NCBI GenBank assembly: GCA_043802485.1
Contig: JAZDKZ010000001.1
Span: 64,622 to 128,621, forward strand
Direction of reading: 5' to 3'
Source of the DNA: Candidatus Aenigmatarchaeota archaeon
GTDB lineage: Archaea; Aenigmatarchaeota; Aenigmatarchaeia; Aenigmatarchaeales; Aenigmatarchaeaceae
DNA length: 64,000 nt
A program made the position numbers and the translations under genes. Under the pieces are notes generated by a model. That model made no database searches and was not told the origin of the DNA. It saw only the letters and a program-made list of their open reading frames with translations. Shown piece after piece: positions 47,125 through 61,940 of this stretch (position 1 is its first letter; each line of letters starts with the position of its first letter).

Positions 47125-47766
47125 TTATCTATGCAGCCTAAGCTCTCCACGTCTCACATAAGAAGAATCAGGCTCTATTTTCATCGCGTTCACAAGTTCT
47201 GGTTCTAAACTAGGGTTGCTCAAGGCCCCGCCATAGATGCCTTTTTTGCATGCTATCGTGTGGCCAGCGTTTATTGGGCCGAAAAGAGTGCACACAGTCC
47301 CTTGGGAACGGATGTCCCCGTCCGCTTCTAGAAGGGTCCCTGCTATTATGTCTCCTCTGGATGATATTGAGCCTCTACACACCAACTTTGTAAATGTCTC
47401 TATTCTTCCAGAGGATTTCAGGTCACCCTCCACAAGCATGTCCCTGATACTTGTGGTCCTCCCGACTTCCAGGTTCCCACGCACCTCTACCTCTACATTG
47501 GGAGCCAACAGACTGGAACCTACGACCAAGTCGCCATTAAAAACAAGATGTTTCTCTCCCTCATAGATAGTCATGTTGTTGTCGACTCGCGTATTTCCTT
47601 TAACACTCAGGCCCTTTGCGGCGATAATCTCATAAGCATGTATAGACGATTTCACTTCGCAGTAATTTTCGAATATGACCCTTTGGAAGGGAAACATGAA
47701 AGAACTTTCATAAGATTTTTTGTTCAATTCACTATCTTTGATTATCTTTGTTTTTAAAGAAACCAT
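47125..47766 (-). CDS. Beta-helical repeat protein, bactofilin-like (polymer-forming cytoskeletal family candidate)
   Basis: The stretch FNGDLVVGSSLLAPNVEVEVRGNLEVGRTTSIRDMLVEGDLKSSGRIETFTKLVCRGSISSRGDIIAGTLLEADGDIRSQGTV has periodic G/D-hydrophobic repeats and no signal peptide. The start was set at the ATG at 47766. Confidence 0.45.
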   Translation of the reverse strand: MVSLKTKIIKDSELNKKSYESSFMFPFQRVIFENYCEVKSSIHAYEIIAAKGLSVKGNTRVDNNMTIYEGEKHLVFNGDLVVGSSLLAPNVEVEVRGNLEVGRTTSIRDMLVEGDLKSSGRIETFTKLVCRGSISSRGDIIAGTLLEADGDIRSQGTVCTLFGPINAGHTIACKKGIYGGALSNPSLEPELVNAMKIEPDSSYVRRGELRLHR

Positions 47767-47771
47767 AAGAA

Positions 47772-47903
47772 TCAACCCATGAGCTCTAATCGCCTGACAG
47801 CGTCCCTTACGGCCTCTGACCTGTTGGGATAGATGCCGCTTTCGATTAGAACGTCTATCTTTTGGATCAATTCCCTTGTTAATCGTATTTGTATTGGATG
47901 CAC
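47772..47903 (-). CDS. Ribbon-helix-helix (CopG/NikR-type) DNA-binding protein, 43 aa
   Basis: Not in the ORF track. Hand translation from a GTG start gives (M)HPIQIRLTRELIQKIDVLIESGIYPNRSEAVRDAVRRLELMG, a classic RHH pattern. Its stop abuts the downstream bactofilin-like ORF. Confidence 0.55.
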   Translation of the reverse strand: MHPIQIRLTRELIQKIDVLIESGIYPNRSEAVRDAVRRLELMG

Positions 47904-48083
47904 ATTACCACTGTCTATTTATTGAAAGCAAAAAGATTTAAGCTTGTTTCAGGATTTAGTACAAGTGTTAGACAATTGTAGTTGATGCGTAATGCTAGTA
48001 AAGCAATAAATAGTTTCAAGTTCTATTAGGATTGTGTATTTTCTTAAAATGCAACATAAAAAAATTCTGTGTGAGGTGAGTAA

Positions 48084-51000
48084 ATGAAGCTATTCGGTAA
48101 AAGATTAAAAGGAACTTCTGGCGTCGCTATCGGCGCAATGGTCGTGCTCACGCTCGCGTTTTTAGTTGCTAGCGTCAGCTATATGATGCCTGGTTTGGCT
48201 GCTCACCTCAACTCAGCTGAAATACAACCAGAATGGTCTCCATCGGGTGATACAATAGATTATAGTGTGGAGATATGTAATGTTCCTGACGGTGGAGATT
48301 CGATTGATGAAGTTAGAATTTATGAGACAACGGGTTATACTATAGTAACCGCAGATGACAAAACAGGATGGTATAAATCACCATACAACCCTGTTAAGAA
48401 ATATTACCAATATACTGCTGAAGATTCTTCCTATTATATTGATGAGGGGGAGTGTACTACTTTCTATTTTAGAGCTACAACACCATTAACACCTTATTGT
48501 GATTTGCAATGGAAGTTTGAAACAAGAGATGTGAATGATGTTTGGAAATTTGCTTATGACTATACAAGCGTTGATGATATGGAACCCGTTATAATAAAAA
48601 CTTTAGGTGAACCTAAAATAGAAAACGGAGAGACATGGATAACTCAAGACACACAAATAAGGATTGAATTTTATGATCAAGGAACTTGTGGTGTAAGTGG
48701 CTTAGATTACTGTGATTATAGGTATGACATCGATGATGATACATCGATGCTATGGACAAGAATTCAGTGGCAAAGAGTCCAGCTTGGTAGCCCGCCACAC
48801 TATTTCTTCAACTTTACCTATAATGAAGACTCTCTGCATCATTTGGAGATAAGATGCTATGATGTAGCTGGTAACATGGCTTATCATGAACAAACTGAGA
48901 GAGTTGATGACACACCACCTGCAACAACAAAGGTTGTTAGTGAACCCAAGAAATTGGTTCCAATACCAGGAACACCATGGTTTGTTGAGTATGTTGACAC
49001 AACAACAACAATTACTTTGAATGCTGTTGATGGCGGTCCAATCTGTGCAATAGACGTTGACAAGACTTGGTACAAGAATGAAGTTTACACAGAACAAGTT
49101 TTAGCATCAGTTACCAATGGAAATGGTGGTCCTCACGGGTACGACTATTGTTATCATCCTGATTTGTACTGCAATGACAATTACTTGCCGATGCCTACAC
49201 CATACGATGCTCAGGATCCTGGTTGTATAAATGCAGGGCAAGAATATTGTACTGAATTTTGGGATCAAGTAACAAATGGAGGACCTTATCCTAGCTGGGA
49301 AGCATGTGTAGAAGATTATGCCCACAAAAAATGTAGTGTTGATTCATCATGGAAACTTTATGATGGAACGCCAATAACAAAGGACGAAGAATCATGCCAC
49401 ATCCTATATTACTTCAGTATTGACCATCTAGGAAACATGGAAAATATGCAATATAATTGTTTCTTTGTTGACAAGACACCACCAGTTGGAACAAAAGAAA
49501 TAGGAATACCAAGGATACCAATACCAGACAACGAATTCCAAACTATAGGTGAAGGGACTGCTGAATGGACAGACTCAAAATATTATTTTGGGAACTATTC
49601 TGTAAGATTATATGTTGTAGATGGTTCAAGTGACGTAGCTGCAGTTGAGTATGATGTTGACATAGCCTTGGAAGATATCGATGAATTATCATTCTGGCAA
49701 AAAATATCCAACACATATGGAGTTAATGTAATATTAGGGATAGATGCAGATGCAGATGGTACCTATGAATCTCTAGACAAGCCATGGCATTTCAGCCATG
49801 ACCCAAATGATTTGGGAGATGACTCATTCATAGAAATGGATGGAATGTATCTGAGTAGTGGAAGTTGGGAAGAAGTAAATGCTTTATCTATTTCACAATG
49901 GTGGACTCCAAATGACGATGGAAACGGTTTCTGTGCAGATTTTGGATGGAACTACTTGAGCGATATTCAATCAACAACTAGGTGTCGTGTGGAACCAACA
50001 GACAGAGTTAAAGTAATTAGGTTACTCATCGGTGGTTCAGGTACTTGGACAGACAAGGTTGCTTTTGTGGACGATATAACGTTGAACGGAGAAACAATTA
50101 GATTAGAACCACAAAATTATTGGGTAAGAGACGATACTTTAATAGCTGGAACACCAATAACATTGACTTGTGTAGACCCAGAACCACACCCATCAGGTGA
50201 TGAAGAAGTTTGTTTCAGGGTTTCATATGATATTGAACCTTGGTTAACAACAGATTATTGTACTGATGTGAAAGGTACAATGCAAGGTGGATCAGATAAT
50301 GATTGGTGTTGTGTAGATAATACTGCACAAATAGTCTTCCACGAAGACTCCTTGCATGATTTGGAATATTATTGTATAGATGCTGTTGATAAGCAAAGTG
50401 AAATTGATTTAGAATACTTTAGAGTTGATTCTCTACCACCAATAATAACTAAAGAAATGATTGGCGAAGACCATCTAGGATATAGAGATGGTGTATTAAA
50501 TGAAGATGCATGTCCACCAAAACCAGGACAGCCAGATGAATGTTTTGTGAGAGATCATGAAGAGAATGGAGTAAGAATCATAGTTGCTGATGACATGACT
50601 TACCCAGAATGTGCTGTTGGTGACTTAGATTGTTATTATGAACTTTGGTGGCAGACTGATTTGGATACGTGCATCAATGAGTTGGGTCCAGAGCACCTAT
50701 ACAACTTTGAAACAGATCAATGCTTTGTCGAAGGTGGCCAATTCGGAGAAGGAAAGGACATAATTTTCACAGAAGATTCGACGCATGAACTGTATATAGA
50801 ATGTGAGGATGCACTCGGAAACTATGTTGAAGATACTGAAATTTTCAAAGTTGATTCAACACCTCCGGAGACAGAAAAAACTTATGGAGAACCTTCAGAA
50901 GTTGATCCAACCTGTGAAAGTGAATGTATCAGCACGTGTACAAACTCTCTATTAGATAATGAATGTTTAGAAGATTGCTTGCACGAACATTGCTTATGGT

Positions 51001-52376
51001 GGATTAGCTCTTCGACATTAATAACATTAACTCCTGGTGAGGATGAGAAAGTTGGTCTTGACGAGACGCAATATAGAGTAAGTGGTGCATTAGCAGACAG
51101 CTTCTGCCACAATTGTGCAAACTGGATGCAATTATTGAGGCCAGACATGGGACCATGGCAAACATATGTAGATGGTCAACCATTCACAATACCACAAGAA
51201 TCCTGTCACGTCATAGAATATAGAAGCGTTGACTTGCTAGGAAATCAGGAAGATATCAGGTGGCAGTGTGTATTCGTAGATAACACACCACCTGAAGTGA
51301 ACAAAACAATAAGTGGTACACAAGAAGAATGGGAAGGAGACGATACATTCTATGAAAACTTAATAGCAAGATGTGCTGCAGGCGATATAGAATGTTGGAA
51401 GGTGACTTTAGGAACTACACTATCATTAGAATGTAGCGAACCGACTCACTCTGGTGACAGAAATGATATGTGTTTCAGATTAGAGTTGGATGGAGAACTT
51501 GAAACAGAGAAATATTGTGTTTGGTATGGAGGAATTGGAGTAAATGAAGATGATGACGAATATGATGAATGGTGTTGTTTAGATGGAGGAATAGAAGAAT
51601 TCCATTTCCTTGAAGAATCACAGCACGACTTGGAAGTAAAGTGTATAGACCCACTATACGAGAGCGCGATTGACGAGGAGAAGTTCAAAGTTGAGGGATG
51701 CCCATTCGATATATGTCTGAACAAGAAATGGAACCTAATATCAGTGCCATTTGTATTGTTCAATAGTGATCCAGATGTGGTATTTAATGAAGTAAAAGGA
51801 GACATAGCCTCGGTTTGGACATACGATCCTTCACAATGCCCGAGCGATGGTTGGTGTGTTTGGACACCAGATGGAAGCGGAAACTTAAATAATATCAGAC
51901 CCGGTTGGGGATATTGGGTACTTTCCAAAGAAGATCAAGTATGTTTTGAGATAGCAGGAAGTTTGATGAGCCCAACGGAGGTCCCACCTTCAAGAACATT
52001 ACAATCGGGATGGAATTTGATAGGTTATTACGGAAATACAGGATTGAATGAAGATAAATGGTGGTTTGAATGTGGTGACGATTTGGATCAGTGCTACATC
52101 GCAAGTAGACCAGTTTACTGCGCGCTGAACTCATTGGTTGACACACATATAGGCTTCCCGAGATGGAGTTCATTATATGCATACAATAACTACGGAAACG
52201 ATGATGCAGGATGGGATCCGATGGATGCATGCGTAGGTGGATTTTGGAATACAGAATATATGAATCCAGGTCAAGGATACTGGATAGAAATGGACGTTTC
52301 AGATGGCTATGCACCAGCTACTAACTGTATTTGGAACAGTGACTTAAAGTGTGTACTTGAATGGCCTGGGGCTTAA
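48084..52376 (+). CDS. Giant (1430 aa) cysteine-rich modular cell-surface protein
   Basis: The N-terminus is MKLFGKRLKG/TSGVAIGAMVVLTLAFLVASV. Module boundaries of the form [F/V]xVD[D/K/S/N]xPP recur at aa 163, 274, 462, 781, 923 and 1065, with a variant KVEGCP at 1203. Each is preceded by [E/Q][D/E]SxHxLE/Y...D..GN. An SD (gaggtga) lies upstream. Confidence 0.8.
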   Translation: MKLFGKRLKGTSGVAIGAMVVLTLAFLVASVSYMMPGLAAHLNSAEIQPEWSPSGDTIDYSVEICNVPDGGDSIDEVRIYETTGYTIVTADDKTGWYKSPYNPVKKYYQYTAEDSSYYIDEGECTTFYFRATTPLTPYCDLQWKFETRDVNDVWKFAYDYTSVDDMEPVIIKTLGEPKIENGETWITQDTQIRIEFYDQGTCGVSGLDYCDYRYDIDDDTSMLWTRIQWQRVQLGSPPHYFFNFTYNEDSLHHLEIRCYDVAGNMAYHEQTERVDDTPPATTKVVSEPKKLVPIPGTPWFVEYVDTTTTITLNAVDGGPICAIDVDKTWYKNEVYTEQVLASVTNGNGGPHGYDYCYHPDLYCNDNYLPMPTPYDAQDPGCINAGQEYCTEFWDQVTNGGPYPSWEACVEDYAHKKCSVDSSWKLYDGTPITKDEESCHILYYFSIDHLGNMENMQYNCFFVDKTPPVGTKEIGIPRIPIPDNEFQTIGEGTAEWTDSKYYFGNYSVRLYVVDGSSDVAAVEYDVDIALEDIDELSFWQKISNTYGVNVILGIDADADGTYESLDKPWHFSHDPNDLGDDSFIEMDGMYLSSGSWEEVNALSISQWWTPNDDGNGFCADFGWNYLSDIQSTTRCRVEPTDRVKVIRLLIGGSGTWTDKVAFVDDITLNGETIRLEPQNYWVRDDTLIAGTPITLTCVDPEPHPSGDEEVCFRVSYDIEPWLTTDYCTDVKGTMQGGSDNDWCCVDNTAQIVFHEDSLHDLEYYCIDAVDKQSEIDLEYFRVDSLPPIITKEMIGEDHLGYRDGVLNEDACPPKPGQPDECFVRDHEENGVRIIVADDMTYPECAVGDLDCYYELWWQTDLDTCINELGPEHLYNFETDQCFVEGGQFGEGKDIIFTEDSTHELYIECEDALGNYVEDTEIFKVDSTPPETEKTYGEPSEVDPTCESECISTCTNSLLDNECLEDCLHEHCLWWISSSTLITLTPGEDEKVGLDETQYRVSGALADSFCHNCANWMQLLRPDMGPWQTYVDGQPFTIPQESCHVIEYRSVDLLGNQEDIRWQCVFVDNTPPEVNKTISGTQEEWEGDDTFYENLIARCAAGDIECWKVTLGTTLSLECSEPTHSGDRNDMCFRLELDGELETEKYCVWYGGIGVNEDDDEYDEWCCLDGGIEEFHFLEESQHDLEVKCIDPLYESAIDEEKFKVEGCPFDICLNKKWNLISVPFVLFNSDPDVVFNEVKGDIASVWTYDPSQCPSDGWCVWTPDGSGNLNNIRPGWGYWVLSKEDQVCFEIAGSLMSPTEVPPSRTLQSGWNLIGYYGNTGLNEDKWWFECGDDLDQCYIASRPVYCALNSLVDTHIGFPRWSSLYAYNNYGNDDAGWDPMDACVGGFWNTEYMNPGQGYWIEMDVSDGYAPATNCIWNSDLKCVLEWPGA

Positions 52377-52402
52377 TTTTTTACCCCGACTTTTATTTTT
52401 TT
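52377..52402 (+). terminator. Oligo-T tract after the giant gene (archaeal intrinsic terminator candidate)
   Basis: ttttttaccccgacttttattttttt follows the TAA stop directly. Confidence 0.35.
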
Positions 52403-52466
52403 GATTTATAACCATAAACAAAGAACGTTTAAATAGTTTTTTGTTTAATTATTGCTGTTGAGTAAA

Positions 52467-53249
52467 ATGAATATTAAATTTTTAACAACGATGATTATTG
52501 CTCTAATGCTTTTTGCTAATATTGTTTTAGCAATACCAGCTATGTCACACAAGTTCTATGGAACCGTTACTATAAATGGTCAGCCAGCTCCTGATGGAAC
52601 AACAGTCACAGCAAAAATAAATGGTGTAGATGTATCAAGCACAACGACTTCTGGAGGTAATTATGGGGATGACTATTCTTTCGGAGTGCCTGACCCAGAC
52701 GGAATTAGAGTTGGAAGCGAAATAAGGCTTTTTGTAAATAATGTTTATAGTGGTGTTTCAGCGGTATTTTGCAATGCTTGCTATAATCTTTGTGGTACTG
52801 ATTCAGTAGGTTGTGCACCATTGAATTTGGCTGTTACAATCCCGACAACCACAGGTGGCGCTTCGCCTTCAGGCGGAGGAGCATCCACAACAACAAGCAC
52901 GACCGGAACAACTGGAACCACAGAAACAACCAGCGCAATCACTGAGACAGGTTGCCAGGAGAAATGGACCTGTTCGAATTGGGGCGAGTGTGTAAACGGC
53001 ATCCAGGCAAGAACCTGTGAGGACGAGAACGCCTGCGGAACCAACAGCAGGGAGCCTTTTGCGAGCCAACCATGCTCAGCAGAGGAAAGAAAGGAAGCGG
53101 AAGCATCTGCAGGGCCAATAGGATTCTTTTTGCTGTCATCAACCGACTTGGCAGTTGCCGCAGCGGTCGGAGCTGTGGCCTCGGCAGTGATCATATTCTT
53201 GATAATGAGAAGAAAACCCAAGCCAGTGCCTGTAGTTGTAGTTGGTTAG
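52467..53249 (+). CDS. Secreted, C-terminally anchored protein with a Thr/Gly/Ser-rich linker and a six-Cys TSP1-like module
   Basis: Signal MNIKFLTTMIIALMLFANIVLA, linker PTTTGGASPSGGGASTTTSTTGTTGTTETTSA, and module CQEKWTCSNWGECVNGIQARTCEDENACGTNSREPFASQPC. The C-terminal TM helix is followed by RRKPKP. Confidence 0.6.
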   Translation: MNIKFLTTMIIALMLFANIVLAIPAMSHKFYGTVTINGQPAPDGTTVTAKINGVDVSSTTTSGGNYGDDYSFGVPDPDGIRVGSEIRLFVNNVYSGVSAVFCNACYNLCGTDSVGCAPLNLAVTIPTTTGGASPSGGGASTTTSTTGTTGTTETTSAITETGCQEKWTCSNWGECVNGIQARTCEDENACGTNSREPFASQPCSAEERKEAEASAGPIGFFLLSSTDLAVAAAVGAVASAVIIFLIMRRKPKPVPVVVVG

Positions 53250-53313: not shown

Positions 53314-54066
53314 ATGTCCAAAAAAGTGAAATTTTTAATAATAATGTTACTCTCAATAGCAATCTCTGCTGTAGCAGCCCAAGCCATGATCAATTTCCCT
53401 GACTTTAAGGTCTTCCCGATGATATATGACGAGAGCATGCCTGGCAAGCTGCTGGACAAGCTTGCTGACATAGACAGGCTGTCCTTTGTCGAGCTGGCGC
53501 AGCACGGCTACGCGCACAAGACGAACGAGACGCTCCTGGAGGTGATGCAGGGCTACGGCATACTAAAGTACAACTGCTCCCTTGACATAAAGTACTACAT
53601 ACCTCCTTTTGACGACCTTCCCGACTATCCTATCCCTGAGAAACTGTTCTACATACCGAAAAAGACCGATGGTTTGTACTATCAAAAAGAGAGGATGGAC
53701 TATGGCGAAAACAATGTGGACGGAGGAATGACCATGGCCATCCACATACAGGACCCGATAACGTCCGAATGGCTGGACTTTATAACAGAGGGCAGGACTA
53801 TAGACTATCTCCGCGTCGATGACATAAACACGGACATTGTGGATGTGGACACGCAGATCAACAAAATATACACCATGATAACATTCTGCGGCAGGAATAA
53901 CTGCACCCTTGTGATGGCAGTGATACCGGTTGTTCCCAGGCTCTACAAGTCTGACCAGAGCTATCTGTTCTACAACAAGGCGATGATAGCCCTTGGCGTA
54001 TTGCTCATACTTCCCATATACCTGTTCTATTTCCTGAGCTATTACCTGAGGCGGTGGGTCGAATGA
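53314..54066 (+). CDS. Signal-anchored protein, possibly a DUF2334/polysaccharide deacetylase-like domain, with a C-terminal TM helix
   Basis: Signal MSKKVKFLIIMLLSIAISAVAAQA. The FVELAQHGYAHK (HGYxH) segment resembles DUF2334-type putative deacetylases. Its stop overlaps the GT2 start (ATGA). Confidence 0.4.
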   Translation: MSKKVKFLIIMLLSIAISAVAAQAMINFPDFKVFPMIYDESMPGKLLDKLADIDRLSFVELAQHGYAHKTNETLLEVMQGYGILKYNCSLDIKYYIPPFDDLPDYPIPEKLFYIPKKTDGLYYQKERMDYGENNVDGGMTMAIHIQDPITSEWLDFITEGRTIDYLRVDDINTDIVDVDTQINKIYTMITFCGRNNCTLVMAVIPVVPRLYKSDQSYLFYNKAMIALGVLLILPIYLFYFLSYYLRRWVE

Positions 54067-55109
54067 ACAAAGTGTCAACCATCATAATACCTGTCTACAA
54101 CGAGGAGGGCGTCATAGCAGAGACGCTGATGAAGAACGCAGCAGCTTTCGAGAAAATGCGAAGCAGCATCCAGGAGATAATTGTTGTTGATGACGGGTCG
54201 ATAGACAACTCGAAAAGGGAGATAAATAATTTCATAAGGAACTACAAGGGCAGGCTGAAGATAAGGCTTGTCCCGCACACCACGAACATGGGAAAGGCCC
54301 AGGCCCTTAACACAGGCATAAGGCATGCCAAGGGCGATTACGTGCTGCTTTCCGACTCTGACTCATGGATGGACAAGGACACCCCTGAAAAGATCATCCT
54401 TGAGATGGCAGAGTCAGGAGCCTCGTGCATTGTCGGCCATGTCGTGCCTGCGCAGAACACCCTGCTCACCAGGCTGCAGAAGATGGAGTACGACTTTGAC
54501 CAGAAGATAATCAGGACAGTGCAGTCCATCTACACCAACGTCATATCCATACCAGGCCCGCTCTACTTTACCAAGAAGAGCATAGTTGAAAAGATAAAGT
54601 TCGACAAGTACAGCATCGTGGAGGACTTTAAGATAGGCATAGAGATGAACAGGAAAGACCAGAGGATATTGCCTTCTGACGCCATCGTCTACTCCTATTC
54701 GCCCACAAAATTATCACAGCTGAGAAAGCAGAGGCTGAGATGGTTCGGCGGCATACTCAAAGAGTCCATAGTCAACAGGGCAGTCTGGAAAAAGAACCCG
54801 TTCTACCTTTTCAATGTCATAATGTGCTTTGCATCCTTCCTTTTCACCATAGCAACAATGGCGCTGTTCAGCCTCATGATTTATTTTGCGACCAATCCGG
54901 CCAACCTCATGGTGAACTTTTTCATATTCTTCCTTTTCTTCTGCTTTGCCATATCCGGCATGTACGCCTTTGCCGTGAGAAAGTTCGAGCTGGACGCCTT
55001 CATAGCCTTCCCCATGTACCTGACCTTCCTTTTCCTGATCAGGACAGAGGTGGTGATAAAGGTGGTTCTGGGAAGGAAGTTCACCTGGGGCACCAGGGAA
55101 TACCGCTAG
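54063..55109 (+). CDS. Family 2 glycosyltransferase, processive beta-polysaccharide synthase type
   Basis: Contains IIIPVYNEE, VVDDGSIDNS, LLSDSDS (DxD), SIVEDFKIG and QRLRWFGG (the Q[RQ]xRW motif). About four C-terminal TM helices follow. Confidence 0.85.
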   Translation: MNKVSTIIIPVYNEEGVIAETLMKNAAAFEKMRSSIQEIIVVDDGSIDNSKREINNFIRNYKGRLKIRLVPHTTNMGKAQALNTGIRHAKGDYVLLSDSDSWMDKDTPEKIILEMAESGASCIVGHVVPAQNTLLTRLQKMEYDFDQKIIRTVQSIYTNVISIPGPLYFTKKSIVEKIKFDKYSIVEDFKIGIEMNRKDQRILPSDAIVYSYSPTKLSQLRKQRLRWFGGILKESIVNRAVWKKNPFYLFNVIMCFASFLFTIATMALFSLMIYFATNPANLMVNFFIFFLFFCFAISGMYAFAVRKFELDAFIAFPMYLTFLFLIRTEVVIKVVLGRKFTWGTREYR

Positions 55110-57735: not shown

Positions 57736-58803
57736 ATGAACAAAATAATAATAGCAACAATAATGGGAATGATTTTGATAGCTCCGCTCGCATTAGCAGA
57801 CCAGGTTAACTTGGACATAAATGTCAACGGAACAGCCAACCTCAACATAACCGTTGACGCGGACGACACCTTGGCAAGGGAAATGATTACTGATATGCAG
57901 GAAGACGCCTATGGAACAATGACTGGTTCAGGGCCAAAAGACATGGTATTGGACGAGATAAAAGCAGGCGGGGGAAACCCAATCGTGACCACAGACGACA
58001 TGGGCACGATATACAGTCTTTGCGAGGACCCGTTCCTGAAGCAGTACCTGAACAACATCGGCAACCTACCACCTTTGGAATTCGTCGACTATGTGAAGGC
58101 TTTGGGTTATGACGACGAGGCTCACATAACCCTCATTTGGACCATATGCCAGCAGCTGTACATAACTCAGCAGGAAGCTGCCTGGTCTTCTGACTCTGGC
58201 GTGAAGCTGCCAGACATGGTGAGGTACATCGCAGGCGGTATAAGCTGGCTGATGGGCAAAGAGGTCAACCCGCCAGAAGGCTACAAGCAGATTGGAACAG
58301 CTTTGGACAGCTACTTTGCAAGCGACAGGGACGTGTGGATTCTGGTGAACAAGATAAGGGAGCTGGAAATAAGGCTGGAGACGCTCGAGAAGACCATGGA
58401 AAGGGTTGACACTGATACCTACTGCGACGCAAAGTTGGAGGCCATGGAAAAGTACAACCTAAGCTATGTGAAATGCGGCGAGAACTCTACCATCTATGCA
58501 CAGGTCAATCCAGACATTTTCGGATATGACATCTTGGGTTATACCAATGATGACAGATGCGAGGAAGACTGGACCTGCACAGAATGGGGCGAATGCGAGG
58601 ACGGAGAGATGAACAGAGTATGTACCGACGTTAATCTGTGCGGCACAACAAAGGACATACCTTTGGAGAGGCAGGGCTGCGTGGTGATAGAGATGCTGGT
58701 TGAGAAGCAAGTCGAGCCTGAAACACCACAGTTCTCTTACGTGGGCGTGTCTGATGCTCTTTCAAACCTTCAAGGTTTCCTTTTCCCATTGTTTATTGTT
58801 TAG
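57736..58803 (+). CDS. Secreted protein with a six-Cys TSP1-like module and a hydrophobic C-terminus
   Basis: Signal MNKIIIATIMGMILIAPLALA. The module CEEDWTCTEWGECEDGEMNRVCTDVNLCGTTKDIPLERQGC is co-linear with the one in 52467..53249. It starts 4 nt after the previous ORF. Confidence 0.55.
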   Translation: MNKIIIATIMGMILIAPLALADQVNLDINVNGTANLNITVDADDTLAREMITDMQEDAYGTMTGSGPKDMVLDEIKAGGGNPIVTTDDMGTIYSLCEDPFLKQYLNNIGNLPPLEFVDYVKALGYDDEAHITLIWTICQQLYITQQEAAWSSDSGVKLPDMVRYIAGGISWLMGKEVNPPEGYKQIGTALDSYFASDRDVWILVNKIRELEIRLETLEKTMERVDTDTYCDAKLEAMEKYNLSYVKCGENSTIYAQVNPDIFGYDILGYTNDDRCEEDWTCTEWGECEDGEMNRVCTDVNLCGTTKDIPLERQGCVVIEMLVEKQVEPETPQFSYVGVSDALSNLQGFLFPLFIV

Positions 58804-59828: not shown

Positions 59829-61940
59829 ATGAAAAAAGTTATTCTATTTTCCATATTGGCAATAGTCTTGCTGAGCTCAATAACACTGGCAATAACAGAT
59901 GCGAAAGCGTCAAAAATTAAGTCTAATAGAGTCATAGCGCGCACAAATTCTATGGCAGATAGGATGCTATTCAAAATGCAGGGGTGCAAAATAATTCACG
60001 AGCTGGAAGATGCGACTGCAATGAATTGCCCGGAGGCGATCGCTTCGAGATTCGAGCAGGATGAAGTTCTTTATATAATGGATTTACAAGCAGACCAACA
60101 AATAGGGGCGGACAAGGTCTGGGCTTTGGGCTATGACGGTACTGGGGTAACGGTCGCGGTTTTGGATACCGGGGTTGATTATAGTCATGTAGAGCTTGCG
60201 GACAGCATAGCTGGAGGGATGAGCTTTGTCTCATACACAACCAGCTATTCTGATGACCATGGGCATGGAACGCATGTCTCTGGAATAATAACCGCCAATG
60301 GTGTTGTGACCGGCGCAAAGGGAGTTGCTCCAGGAGCAAGGGTATGGATGGCAAAGGTTTGCGATTCTGGCGGTTCTTGCTATACAAGCGATATAGCAGC
60401 TGCGATTGATTATGTGGTTAATGGGCCTGATGGTGACCCAAGCACAGAAGATGGACTAGCAAAAATAATGAGCATAAGCTTGGGCGGCGGAGGAACCTTT
60501 AGGGCAAATTGTGATAATGACTACTTGGCTTCAAAAGTCAACTGGGCAGTAAGCAAAGGTGTGACGGTTGTAGCAGCAGCAGGCAATACCGGAGGAAAAG
60601 TCAGCAGCCCTGGTTGCGCAAGTGGGGCAATAGCGGTCGGGGCGGTCGACAAAGGCGATGTAAGGCCGTCTTGGTCTGGCTCAGGCAGTGCGTTAGATAT
60701 AGTTGCGCCAGGGGTGAGCATTTATTCCAGTCTGCCGGGCGGCACTTATGCGTCTTGGAGCGGTACTTCAATGGCAACACCGCATGTTTCAGCAACAGTG
60801 GCTTTGATGAGGCAGGTGAACCCGAGCTTGATGGATACTCAAATCAAAAGCATGCTTTATTCGACAGCCAAAGATTTAGGAAGTGCAGGATGGGATAGAT
60901 ATTACGGCTGGGGAAGAGTCGATGCTTACAACGCATACTTAGCTGTTAAACCAATAGAACCTGAATGCACAATTGATTCAGAATGTGATGACGGATTATA
61001 CTGTAACGGAGCTGAGGTATGTGTTTCAGGAGTTTGCCAATCAGGAACAGCAATTGTTTGTTCTTATCTAGATGACCAATGCAATGTTGGAGTTTGCGAT
61101 GAGGGTTCAGATAGTTGTGTAGCTCAACCAGTGTCTGATGGAACTTCATGTGATGATGGTTTGTTCTGTAATGTAGGAGAAACCTGCCAAAGCGGAGTTT
61201 GTACTGGAGGGAAAGCTTACAATTGTGGTGTTAATGATTCTTGTTCCATTGCTTCTTGTGATGAATCATCAGATAGCTGTTCAAGTTCACCAGTAGCAGA
61301 CGGAACAATTTGTGACGATAATTTGTTCTGTACAATAAATGACGTTTGTACAGTTGGTGTTTGCGGTGGAGAACAAAGAAACTGTGACGATGTTATAGGT
61401 TGTACTGCTGATTCTTGCAACGAGGGAACAGGCTCTTGCGATAATACGCCGGACAATTCAATATGCGACAATGGTTTATTCTGCGATGGAACAGAAACCT
61501 GTAGTGCTTTAACAGGATGTCAACTTGGAAATCCAATAACTTGTAATGATAATAATGAATGCACAATAGATAATTGTGTTGAAGGTTCAGGAACATGTGA
61601 AAACATCTGGCCGGCATGCGGTTTGGCGGATGAATGCTGCGGACCAAGTTGCATAAATGACTCAGACTGCGCAACAGCTGTTAAATGCTGGAGCGGAGAT
61701 TATCAATTTCTCTACAGGAATTCGAATCAGATGAAAAAATTCTGCAAGTGTGCAATGGGTACTTATGGATACAATAGTTACAGTTATAGTTGGGGAAGGA
61801 AAACAGTTTATTATTATTTAGACTCAGAAAACAATGAGAACTGGGTTGTGAGTTCAAGGTCATCATATCTTCCAGTAAACAAAGTAGTTTGTGCAGACAA
61901 TGTAACATACCCTACTGACGAAGATTACTACTATGGTTAA
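59829..61940 (+). CDS. Secreted subtilisin-like serine protease (S8) with four tandem 8-Cys repeats and a Tyr-rich C-terminal domain
   Basis: Signal MKKVILFSILAIVLLSSITLA. The catalytic triad motifs are VAVLDTGVD, HGTHVSGII and GTSMATPHVSA. Four ~50-aa repeats follow, of the form CDDGLFCNG.E.C..G.C..G....C.....C....C.EG...C. Confidence 0.9.
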   Translation: MKKVILFSILAIVLLSSITLAITDAKASKIKSNRVIARTNSMADRMLFKMQGCKIIHELEDATAMNCPEAIASRFEQDEVLYIMDLQADQQIGADKVWALGYDGTGVTVAVLDTGVDYSHVELADSIAGGMSFVSYTTSYSDDHGHGTHVSGIITANGVVTGAKGVAPGARVWMAKVCDSGGSCYTSDIAAAIDYVVNGPDGDPSTEDGLAKIMSISLGGGGTFRANCDNDYLASKVNWAVSKGVTVVAAAGNTGGKVSSPGCASGAIAVGAVDKGDVRPSWSGSGSALDIVAPGVSIYSSLPGGTYASWSGTSMATPHVSATVALMRQVNPSLMDTQIKSMLYSTAKDLGSAGWDRYYGWGRVDAYNAYLAVKPIEPECTIDSECDDGLYCNGAEVCVSGVCQSGTAIVCSYLDDQCNVGVCDEGSDSCVAQPVSDGTSCDDGLFCNVGETCQSGVCTGGKAYNCGVNDSCSIASCDESSDSCSSSPVADGTICDDNLFCTINDVCTVGVCGGEQRNCDDVIGCTADSCNEGTGSCDNTPDNSICDNGLFCDGTETCSALTGCQLGNPITCNDNNECTIDNCVEGSGTCENIWPACGLADECCGPSCINDSDCATAVKCWSGDYQFLYRNSNQMKKFCKCAMGTYGYNSYSYSWGRKTVYYYLDSENNENWVVSSRSSYLPVNKVVCADNVTYPTDEDYYYG

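Follow-up and report, generated by a model that had tools for sequence, protein, structure and literature searches.

A giant cysteine-rich protein and its membrane-anchored partner in an Aenigmatarchaeota archaeon: a candidate adhesin from a large unnamed family

What does a cysteine-rich protein of 1430 amino acids do for an archaeon whose assembled genome comprises 769 kb (7 contigs, 89% complete)? The gene in question lies at positions 48084-52376 (+) of a stretch of 64,000 nucleotides, hereafter the window, from Candidatus Aenigmatarchaeota archaeon (assembly GCA_043802485.1, contig JAZDKZ010000001.1, positions 64,622 to 128,621 of the forward strand), and we refer to its product as the giant protein. 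To our knowledge, the attachment of DPANN archaea to their hosts and their choice of hosts are largely unknown, and most of the large surface proteins of these archaea are annotated as 'hypothetical'. A preliminary description, made from the letters of the window alone, had offered two readings of the giant protein, namely a component of the surface layer (S-layer) or the adhesin of an episymbiont. We consider it to be probably a surface adhesin that evolves rapidly and is kept at the membrane by the product of the next gene, and give this reading a probability of roughly 0.55.

The anchorless giant protein and the gene beside it

The open reading frame is continuous over its 1430 codons. Fifty-nine of the encoded residues are cysteines (4.1%), and the mature protein has a calculated mass of 158 kDa and an isoelectric point of 4.05. 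A Sec-type signal peptide is predicted at residues 1-40 (48084-48203, +), with cleavage near LAA-HL, from the N-termini of the family, in which the hydrophobic region ends in xFAx, cleavage would fall before HTS(S/T)AEL.P (HTSTAEL.P as the mature start), and histidine occupies position +1 in 40 of 53 homologs. This agrees with the export that the preliminary description had supposed. The N-terminus of the window protein itself, MKLFGKRLKG followed by a hydrophobic stretch of 22 residues, could also suggest a pilin-like protein, or one associated with filaments, that a class III signal peptidase would process. However, the 53 homologs carry ordinary Sec signals, and the [KR]G plus hydrophobic run that class III processing requires is present in only 4 of them, so that we regard such a filament protein as very improbable. 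No hydrophobic segment was found at the C-terminus of the giant protein, which is therefore without a membrane anchor of its own. Its gene is preceded by a Shine-Dalgarno-like GAGGTGA, read directly at 48073-48079 (+), 5 nt before the ATG, and has the lowest G+C content locally (38-39% at window 48001-52000 vs 42-46% in the flanks).

The gene that follows on the same strand (52467-53249, +) encodes a protein of 260 amino acids, which we take to be the partner of the giant protein from its adjacency, its build and its phyletic pattern. It is composed of a signal peptide, an N-terminal domain of about 100 residues (...PAMSHKFYGTVT...), a linker rich in Thr, Ser and Gly, a module with six cysteines, a C-terminal transmembrane helix and a basic tail. 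Adjacency was counted over 67 loci that contained enough sequence and carried many DPANN labels. A homolog of the N-terminal domain of the partner started no more than 400 nt downstream and on the same strand in 56 of these loci, and was present elsewhere in the locus in 7 more. The build was equally recurrent among the complete partners (n=55), with a signal peptide in 54, a C-terminal transmembrane helix in 52 and the six-cysteine module in 34. The N-terminal domain found no match in Pfam or the PDB. Among the 41 closest genomes, it was detected at E<=1e-43 in exactly six (G000, G002, G003, G006, G013 and G019), which are the same genomes that hold the full C-terminal domain of the giant protein, and the partner gene is always adjacent there. 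The other 35 relatives yielded no partner at this threshold, with a weak partial match in G018 (E 7e-8), and no third conserved neighbour was found around the pair. The preliminary description had missed this gene, which by its distribution is a conserved partner.

The six-cysteine module, of about 41 residues with the pattern C..W.C..W..C...G...R.C.D.N.CGT, was observed at window positions 52953-53075 and 58558-58680 and in the genome at C5:48407-51583 (-). It precedes the C-terminal transmembrane anchor both in the partner and in a glycoprotein-like surface protein of 1058 residues, and it stands near the C-terminus of a 355-residue protein encoded at 57736-58803. Because it is present in 34 of the 55 partner homologs, it looks like a general membrane-proximal module.

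A constant C-terminal end behind a repeated module order

The end of the giant protein that may dock on the partner consists of two related beta-sandwich domains. The first, C1 (WNLIS...PGWGYW; residues 1203-1304, 51690-51995, +), is the family-defining single-copy domain: exactly one copy was found in each of the 119 top homologs, with K1215, N1217, L1218, S1220, P1222, W1257, G1274, G1276 and Y1277 invariant. The second, C2 (GWNLIG...PGQGYW), covers residues 1305-1430 and the stop codon (51996-52376, +). As single sequences the two are weakly alike (z=2.7), and their profiles align in hhalign with a probability of 96% (E 3.9e-9, 43 columns). An AlphaFold2 model of residues 1065-1430, built with an alignment of 69 sequences (predicted local distance difference test score, pLDDT, 87; predicted template modelling score, pTM, 0.85), contains three all-beta domains, namely the last stalk module (M6), C1 and C2. 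The duplicated C-terminal unit that had been noticed earlier is therefore real by profile alignment, and both copies form beta-sandwiches in the model. Foldseek matched this model to generic Ig/FN3 arrays only, among PDB and viral models. A Kelch-like fold was also considered, from a match to the designed protein SAKe (E 1.5e-9), and was rejected. The match was a hairpin of about 27 residues (sVwtYD..deW.v..P) that scored several times along the six-fold repeat of the design, and it is a resemblance of motif only, because the model shows beta-sandwiches and not a propeller.

A profile of this double domain was searched against 1.84 billion representative proteins, with clusters defined at 50% identity. 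It retrieved 301 clusters at E<=1e-30, in which the domain always stands at the extreme C-terminus, 5005 at E<=1e-10 and 13,928 at E<=1e-3. The weaker tier includes a protein of 3424 residues with PKD, LamG and dockerin domains and six copies of the WNL...GYW unit, from a metagenome-assembled genome of Cloacimonadota (MCF7912336.1, P0228 in our set). The unit therefore appears to be a widespread, unnamed beta-sandwich domain. It has no Pfam model and, being unannotated in more than 10,000 protein clusters that include bacterial ones, it merits a family model. As to the pair itself, the distances of the N-terminal domain of the partner and those of C1-C2 are correlated with a Mantel r of 0.27 (0 of 999 permutations), vs r=0.16 for the adjacent M6. 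This suggests a weak co-variation of the two ends in the expected direction.

Upstream of C1, the protein is a chain of modules separated by recurring junctions. The junction motifs reported in the preliminary description were all recovered at their residues: those at 163, 274, 462, 781, 923 and 1065 are clear, and the seventh, at 1203 (KVEGCP), is degenerate and corresponds to the family-wide boundary KFKVEG..F.I.LNKKWNLISVP that leads into the C-terminal domain. The motif [E/Q][D/E]SxHx[L/I] stands about 25 residues before six of the junctions (at residues 248, 435, 754, 897, 1038 and 1177); as estimated from the composition of the protein, about 0.004 occurrences would be expected by chance. 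The cysteine richness and the near-equal size of the last three modules (142, 142 and 138 residues) were likewise borne out. What the preliminary description had missed is the order of the modules. In shuffle-calibrated pairwise local alignments, the first module resembles the fourth (z=8.6), the second the fifth (z=13.8), and the third, which follows an inserted domain, the sixth (z=13.6), with z of 1 to 5 for the remaining pairs. This defines three subtypes in the order A-B-C-A-B-C, and thus a duplicated three-module unit.

The chain begins with N0 (residues 41-162, 48204-48569, +), a single family-specific N-terminal domain, which phmmer detected in 54 of 119 homologs and jackhmmer in nearly all, and which has no Pfam match. 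M1 (type A, residues 163-273, 48570-48902, +) opens with a junction motif. M2 (type B, residues 274-461, 48903-49466, +) ends in EESCH...D.LGN...C.FVDKTPP, in which S437, H439, D447 and N451 are invariant. After the insert follows M3b (type C, residues 666-780, 50079-50423, +), which carries the motifs C.D..PHPSGDEE.C and CC and is a beta-sandwich in a model of residues 462-790. The second unit consists of M4 (type A, residues 781-922, 50424-50849, +), placed by module alignment and by homolog searches, M5 (type B, residues 923-1064, 50850-51275, +), with a six-cysteine loop at residues 944-970, and M6 (type C, residues 1065-1202, 51276-51689, +), with eight cysteines and a beta-sandwich fold in the C-terminal model (pLDDT about 90).

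The Ig-like nature of these modules, as proposed earlier, gained support from several sides. Pfam searches with the whole giant protein returned only noise (Defensin-like, Vanabin and VPg, all E>0.02), and Big_13 and DUF6843 gave no match to the window protein at E<=1, the Pfam gathering score not being reached. The NCBIfam model of the OmpL47-type domain (NF047446) scored 60.4 bits against a cut-off of 40 (E 1.8e-16) over two stretches; the better one, at residues 1021-1057 in M5, covers profile positions 26-60 of 68, that is, the motif hairpin and not the whole domain. In four of five tested homologs, Big_13 or DUF6843 was matched at 16.7-25.6 bits (cut-off 27) in the last third of the models, and the homolog P0007 reached 33.9 bits with DUF6843. 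From the hairpin match and these sub-threshold tails, we read the VD.TPP junction as the tail-to-head boundary of a bacterial-Ig-like beta-sandwich. The AlphaFold models and their generic Ig/FN3 matches agree with this, and the fold of N0, M1, M2, M4 and M5 is inferred from their likeness to the C-type modules, which were modelled, and from the motif that they have in common.

The likeness to OmpL47, Big_13 and DUF6843 lies in the tail of the module, ...F.E(D/E)S.H.L.Y.C.D..GN......VD.TPP, which fits these models; homologs match the last 30 or so positions of Big_13 and positions 57-91 of DUF6843. OmpL47 of Leptospira is surface-exposed and binds matrix proteins weakly (PMC2935396). In contrast to these families, the modules of the giant protein match by the C-terminal hairpin only, are larger (111-188 residues) and cysteine-rich, and fall into three subtypes. 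Moreover, the organism is an archaeon without an outer membrane.

A fast-evolving family, its variable insert and the S-layer question

A word-indexed search returned 290 homologs of 1285-2403 residues, with scores of up to 1392 bits. Nearly all are annotated as 'hypothetical', under Aenigm-, Woese-, Diaphero-/Iain-, Micr-, Alti- and Nanoarchaeota labels. A scan of genome contigs added Pace-, Nanohalo- and Parvarchaeota, the complete AR10 genome and Ca. Iainarchaeum andersonii. A few short contigs with homologs bear bacterial or Methanosarcinales labels, and we regard their binning as doubtful. As far as sequence clustering defines it, the family has no name, comprises at least 301 clusters at 50% identity and bears mostly DPANN labels, and our literature searches found no published description of it. 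The domain strings of 120 members share the frame N-A-B-[insert or none]-C-A-B-...-C-X-Y, where X and Y are C1 and C2. Most have 8-9 modules, and the six of the window protein are the minimum seen.

The insert of the window protein occupies residues 481-665 approximately (49524-50078, +) and is a predicted beta-jelly-roll of the carbohydrate-binding module (CBM) or galactose-binding type. AlphaFold2 with an alignment of 20 sequences modelled residues 462-790 (pLDDT 90, pTM 0.80) as a discrete all-beta jelly roll of about 185 residues followed by the Ig-like module. With a probability of 1.00, Foldseek matched this model to accessory domains of glycoside hydrolases of families GH144 (5z06, 1.3e-7) and GH85 (Endo-D and Endo-A, 4.5e-7 to 1e-5, with 2w91 at 4.5e-7), and to CBM22 (4xup), CBM11 (1v0a, TMt 0.54) and GH2 enzymes. 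The jelly-roll or lectin-type domain that the preliminary description had suspected is thus right at the level of fold. As in the accessory domains of these enzymes, a jelly roll is followed by a beta-sandwich (E 1e-7 to 1e-5). In contrast to them, the insert is 8-12% identical and the giant protein has no catalytic domain. A profile search of PDB sequences with the insert gave no match.

Homologous jelly rolls were found in 23 of about 190 family members. Other homologs carry F5/8 type C (discoidin), VWA_4, DUF4215, InhA-like MAM or Laminin_G_3 (LamG) domains instead, or unassigned stretches of 150-500 residues, at the insert site or at more central positions. On these predicted domains, the cargo carried at the insert site varies throughout a very large family, a feature that the preliminary description had also missed.

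The family is unevenly distributed and changes rapidly. Of 301 genomes of the phylum, 33 contained it, as did 11 of the 41 relatives at a lenient threshold, about six of these with full-length genes. Two loci labelled Aenigmatarchaeota (L007 and L046) have the same gene order as the window, and the lengths of their giant frames, 1217 and 1557 residues, are those of the matches found in G002 and G003, two genomes from the same genus. In these syntenic loci, the flanks are 65-94% identical, the giant protein 38-41% and the partner 42-47%, and the module strings differ between the congeners. At the level of sequence, this shows the giant gene to be accessory and fast-evolving. A tree built from the C-terminal region intermingles the phylum labels and places the window protein on a long branch; its starred branches require no fewer than 3 changes for Aenigmatarchaeota and no fewer than 5 for Woesearchaeota. 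The mixture is compatible with fast divergence and a degree of exchange among lineages, and we do not claim horizontal transfer as proven because the bin labels are unreliable and the branches long.

Such a protein may also serve the needs of its own cell, as a surface-tethered polysaccharide-binding or matrix protein for substrate capture, biofilm formation or self-aggregation, without any recognition of a host. The CBM-type fold of the insert would suit this role, as would a synthase of glycosyltransferase family 2 (GT2) with a deacetylase-like gene 1 kb downstream, GT2 genes near the two genes in nine loci, and the presence of the WNL...GYW unit in the bacterial PKD/LamG/dockerin protein. 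However, the family is labelled almost wholly as small-genome DPANN lineages, no glycoside hydrolase is linked to the pair, and rapid divergence with swapping of cargo fits the recognition of a partner or host better than that of a fixed substrate. We therefore consider a matrix protein rather unlikely and the adhesin the better reading.

The S-layer reading meets a stronger candidate elsewhere in the genome. Outside the window, on another contig (C7:47765-50422, -), a secreted protein of 885 residues, rich in Thr, Ala and Gly and with 0.2% Cys, matches S_layer_C (PF05124, E 5e-17), and its family is present in 34 of the 41 relatives, including 14 of the 15 high-quality genomes. This is likely the true S-layer protein of the lineage. 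MSTP-like S-layer proteins have been predicted in Aenigmatarchaeota (10.1101/2024.05.28.596244), and the corresponding family, PF07752, was not found in this genome. The giant protein itself matched none of the known S-layer families (PF05123/PF05124, PF07752). It has almost no glycosylation sequons: 3 N-X-S/T sites in 1430 residues, or 0.21 per 100, vs 29-55 sites, or 4.3-5.3 per 100, in three other envelope proteins of the genome with signal peptides. Sequon depletion together with high cysteine content suggests a different strategy of stabilisation. Taken with the narrow distribution of the giant family, these comparisons show the giant protein to be distinct from the canonical S-layer protein and give no support to the first option of the preliminary description. 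As a possible counterpart, we weighed and rejected the hamus (grappling-hook) protein of Altiarchaeum, which is Gly/Thr-rich and of an S-layer-like kind; it is related to Methanococcus-type S-layer proteins (PMC4460559).

A less direct envelope role deserves separate mention. The giant protein might be the outer subunit in an S-layer or sheath made of two proteins, comparable to SlaA of Sulfolobales, with the partner as a SlaB-like stalk, and would then be a structural component and not an adhesin. The arrangement is indeed alike: a large anchorless protein of many beta-sandwiches stands beside a smaller one with a C-terminal transmembrane helix and a possible stalk, and this recurs in the 56 of 67 loci and 52 of 55 partners counted above. 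In addition, no S-layer protein of a DPANN archaeon has been determined experimentally (preprint 10.1101/2023.10.27.564410). However, the stalk of the partner is a Ser/Thr/Gly-rich linker and not a coiled coil, and the pair is accessory in its lineage, not universal. The giant protein carries variable, binding-type inserts, and inserts and module numbers vary even within the genus. It also differs from the other envelope proteins of the genome, which in turn holds its own PF05124 protein, in having three sequons and 4.1% Cys. Sequence and profile searches of the PDB with the giant protein, its C-terminus and the partner found, apart from the SAKe hairpin described above, no match to solved proteins, S-layer proteins included, and the C-terminal model matched Ig/FN3 arrays only. 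An envelope subunit of this kind is thus improbable in our view, and we return to the adhesin.

Proposed attachment and the surrounding genes

In the reading that we prefer, the giant protein is a Sec-exported, acidic and anchorless chain of about 10 beta-sandwich domains, including a jelly roll before the third module, and it would act jointly with what the next gene encodes, a small type-I membrane protein. The extracellular N-terminal domain of the partner would stand on a flexible Ser/Thr-rich stalk above its C-terminal transmembrane helix. The invariant C-terminal double domain of the giant protein may dock on that N-terminal domain, by which the partner would tie the giant protein to the membrane and let it project through or beyond the S-layer. 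The distal, variable part would bind a ligand, by means of the jelly-roll insert here and of discoidin, VWA, LamG, MAM or Cys-rich repeat domains in relatives. The ligand would most likely be a glycan or glycoprotein on another cell, for example the host of a small-genome DPANN (Aenigmatarchaeota-like) archaeon. Conserved cysteines, and not N-glycans, may stabilise the chain. We infer the docking, the surface display and the adhesion or host binding from these features. Of the two earlier options, the adhesin is accordingly retained over the S-layer component, and its episymbiotic role is still a matter of interpretation.

More tentatively, the two genes may form a self-contained host-attachment cassette, common to many DPANN phyla and probably exchanged among them, in which the docking end is constant and a swappable ligand-binding insert sets the host surface; such a cassette would possibly be a main determinant of host specificity in DPANN archaea.

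Several points weigh against the adhesin. The insert resembles the accessory domains of glycosidases at the level of fold only, with TM-scores of 0.3 (0.54 for CBM11), and sugar binding is therefore not established. The mirror-tree correlation between the partner and C1-C2 is weak because the distances are saturated (about 0.55). The giant and partner genes may not be co-transcribed, because the interval between them holds an oligo-T run and a TATA-like element, and they may have separate promoters. The oligo-T runs, directly 3' of the stop codon (52377-52402, +), resemble an archaeal terminator, and TTTAAATA at 52428-52435 (+), about 32 nt before the ATG of the partner, resembles a TATA box; both were read directly, and their functions are putative. 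Many metagenome bins carry taxonomic labels that cannot be relied on. Finally, extracellular disulfides are unproven in an organism that is probably anaerobic, and VKOR was not found in its genome. The only candidate for an extracytoplasmic thiol oxidoreductase is a membrane-anchored protein of thioredoxin fold (Thioredoxin_4, 24.5 bits) encoded at C6:~135600-136610 (-), locus L079, which resembles DsbA weakly and has, in place of CxxC, a CPYG motif with a single Cys.

A known parallel is offered by the modular fibrillar adhesins of bacteria (RTX/Bap- and SraP-type), which likewise have a tandem Ig-like stalk with an embedded lectin- or CBM-type domain that varies between relatives. The ligand-binding region of SraP (4m00) is among the Foldseek matches of the insert model (E 4e-4). 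Unlike these adhesins, the giant protein uses a Sec signal and not a type I secretion signal, LPXTG or an autotransporter, its anchoring would depend on a dedicated partner, its cysteines are conserved, and its WNL...GYW double domain has no named counterpart. What is new here is the definition of a very large unnamed family, distinct from the S-layer protein, with a domain grammar and an apparently obligate partner gene. The putative C-terminal docking domain, the N-terminal domain of the partner and the variable insert offer handles that can be tested.

The genes around the pair include further candidates for envelope functions. Downstream, at window 53314-55109, a secreted protein with a weak likeness to DUF2334 overlaps a GT2 glycosyltransferase (Glycos_transf_2, E 3e-29), and homologs of the latter were seen near the giant and partner genes in 9 of 78 loci. 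Divergent from the giant gene, at 47125-47775 (-), a protein shows a weak likeness to bactofilins (PF04519, E 0.002, below the cut-off), and no homolog was detected at the corresponding position in the two syntenic same-genus loci. An S8 subtilase (Peptidase_S8, E 5e-56) with a long Cys-rich C-terminal repeat region is encoded at 59829-61940 and is 86% identical in one same-genus locus.

The giant protein is not the largest of its genome. Three open frames outside the window encode 5824, 5153 and 4279 residues (C7:112576-130050, +; C7:1-15459, -; C4:386-13225, +). Two of the three have N-termini like those of signal peptides, and both frames on C7 run off the ends of the contig. In this 769-kb genome, much of the coding capacity goes into giant surface proteins.

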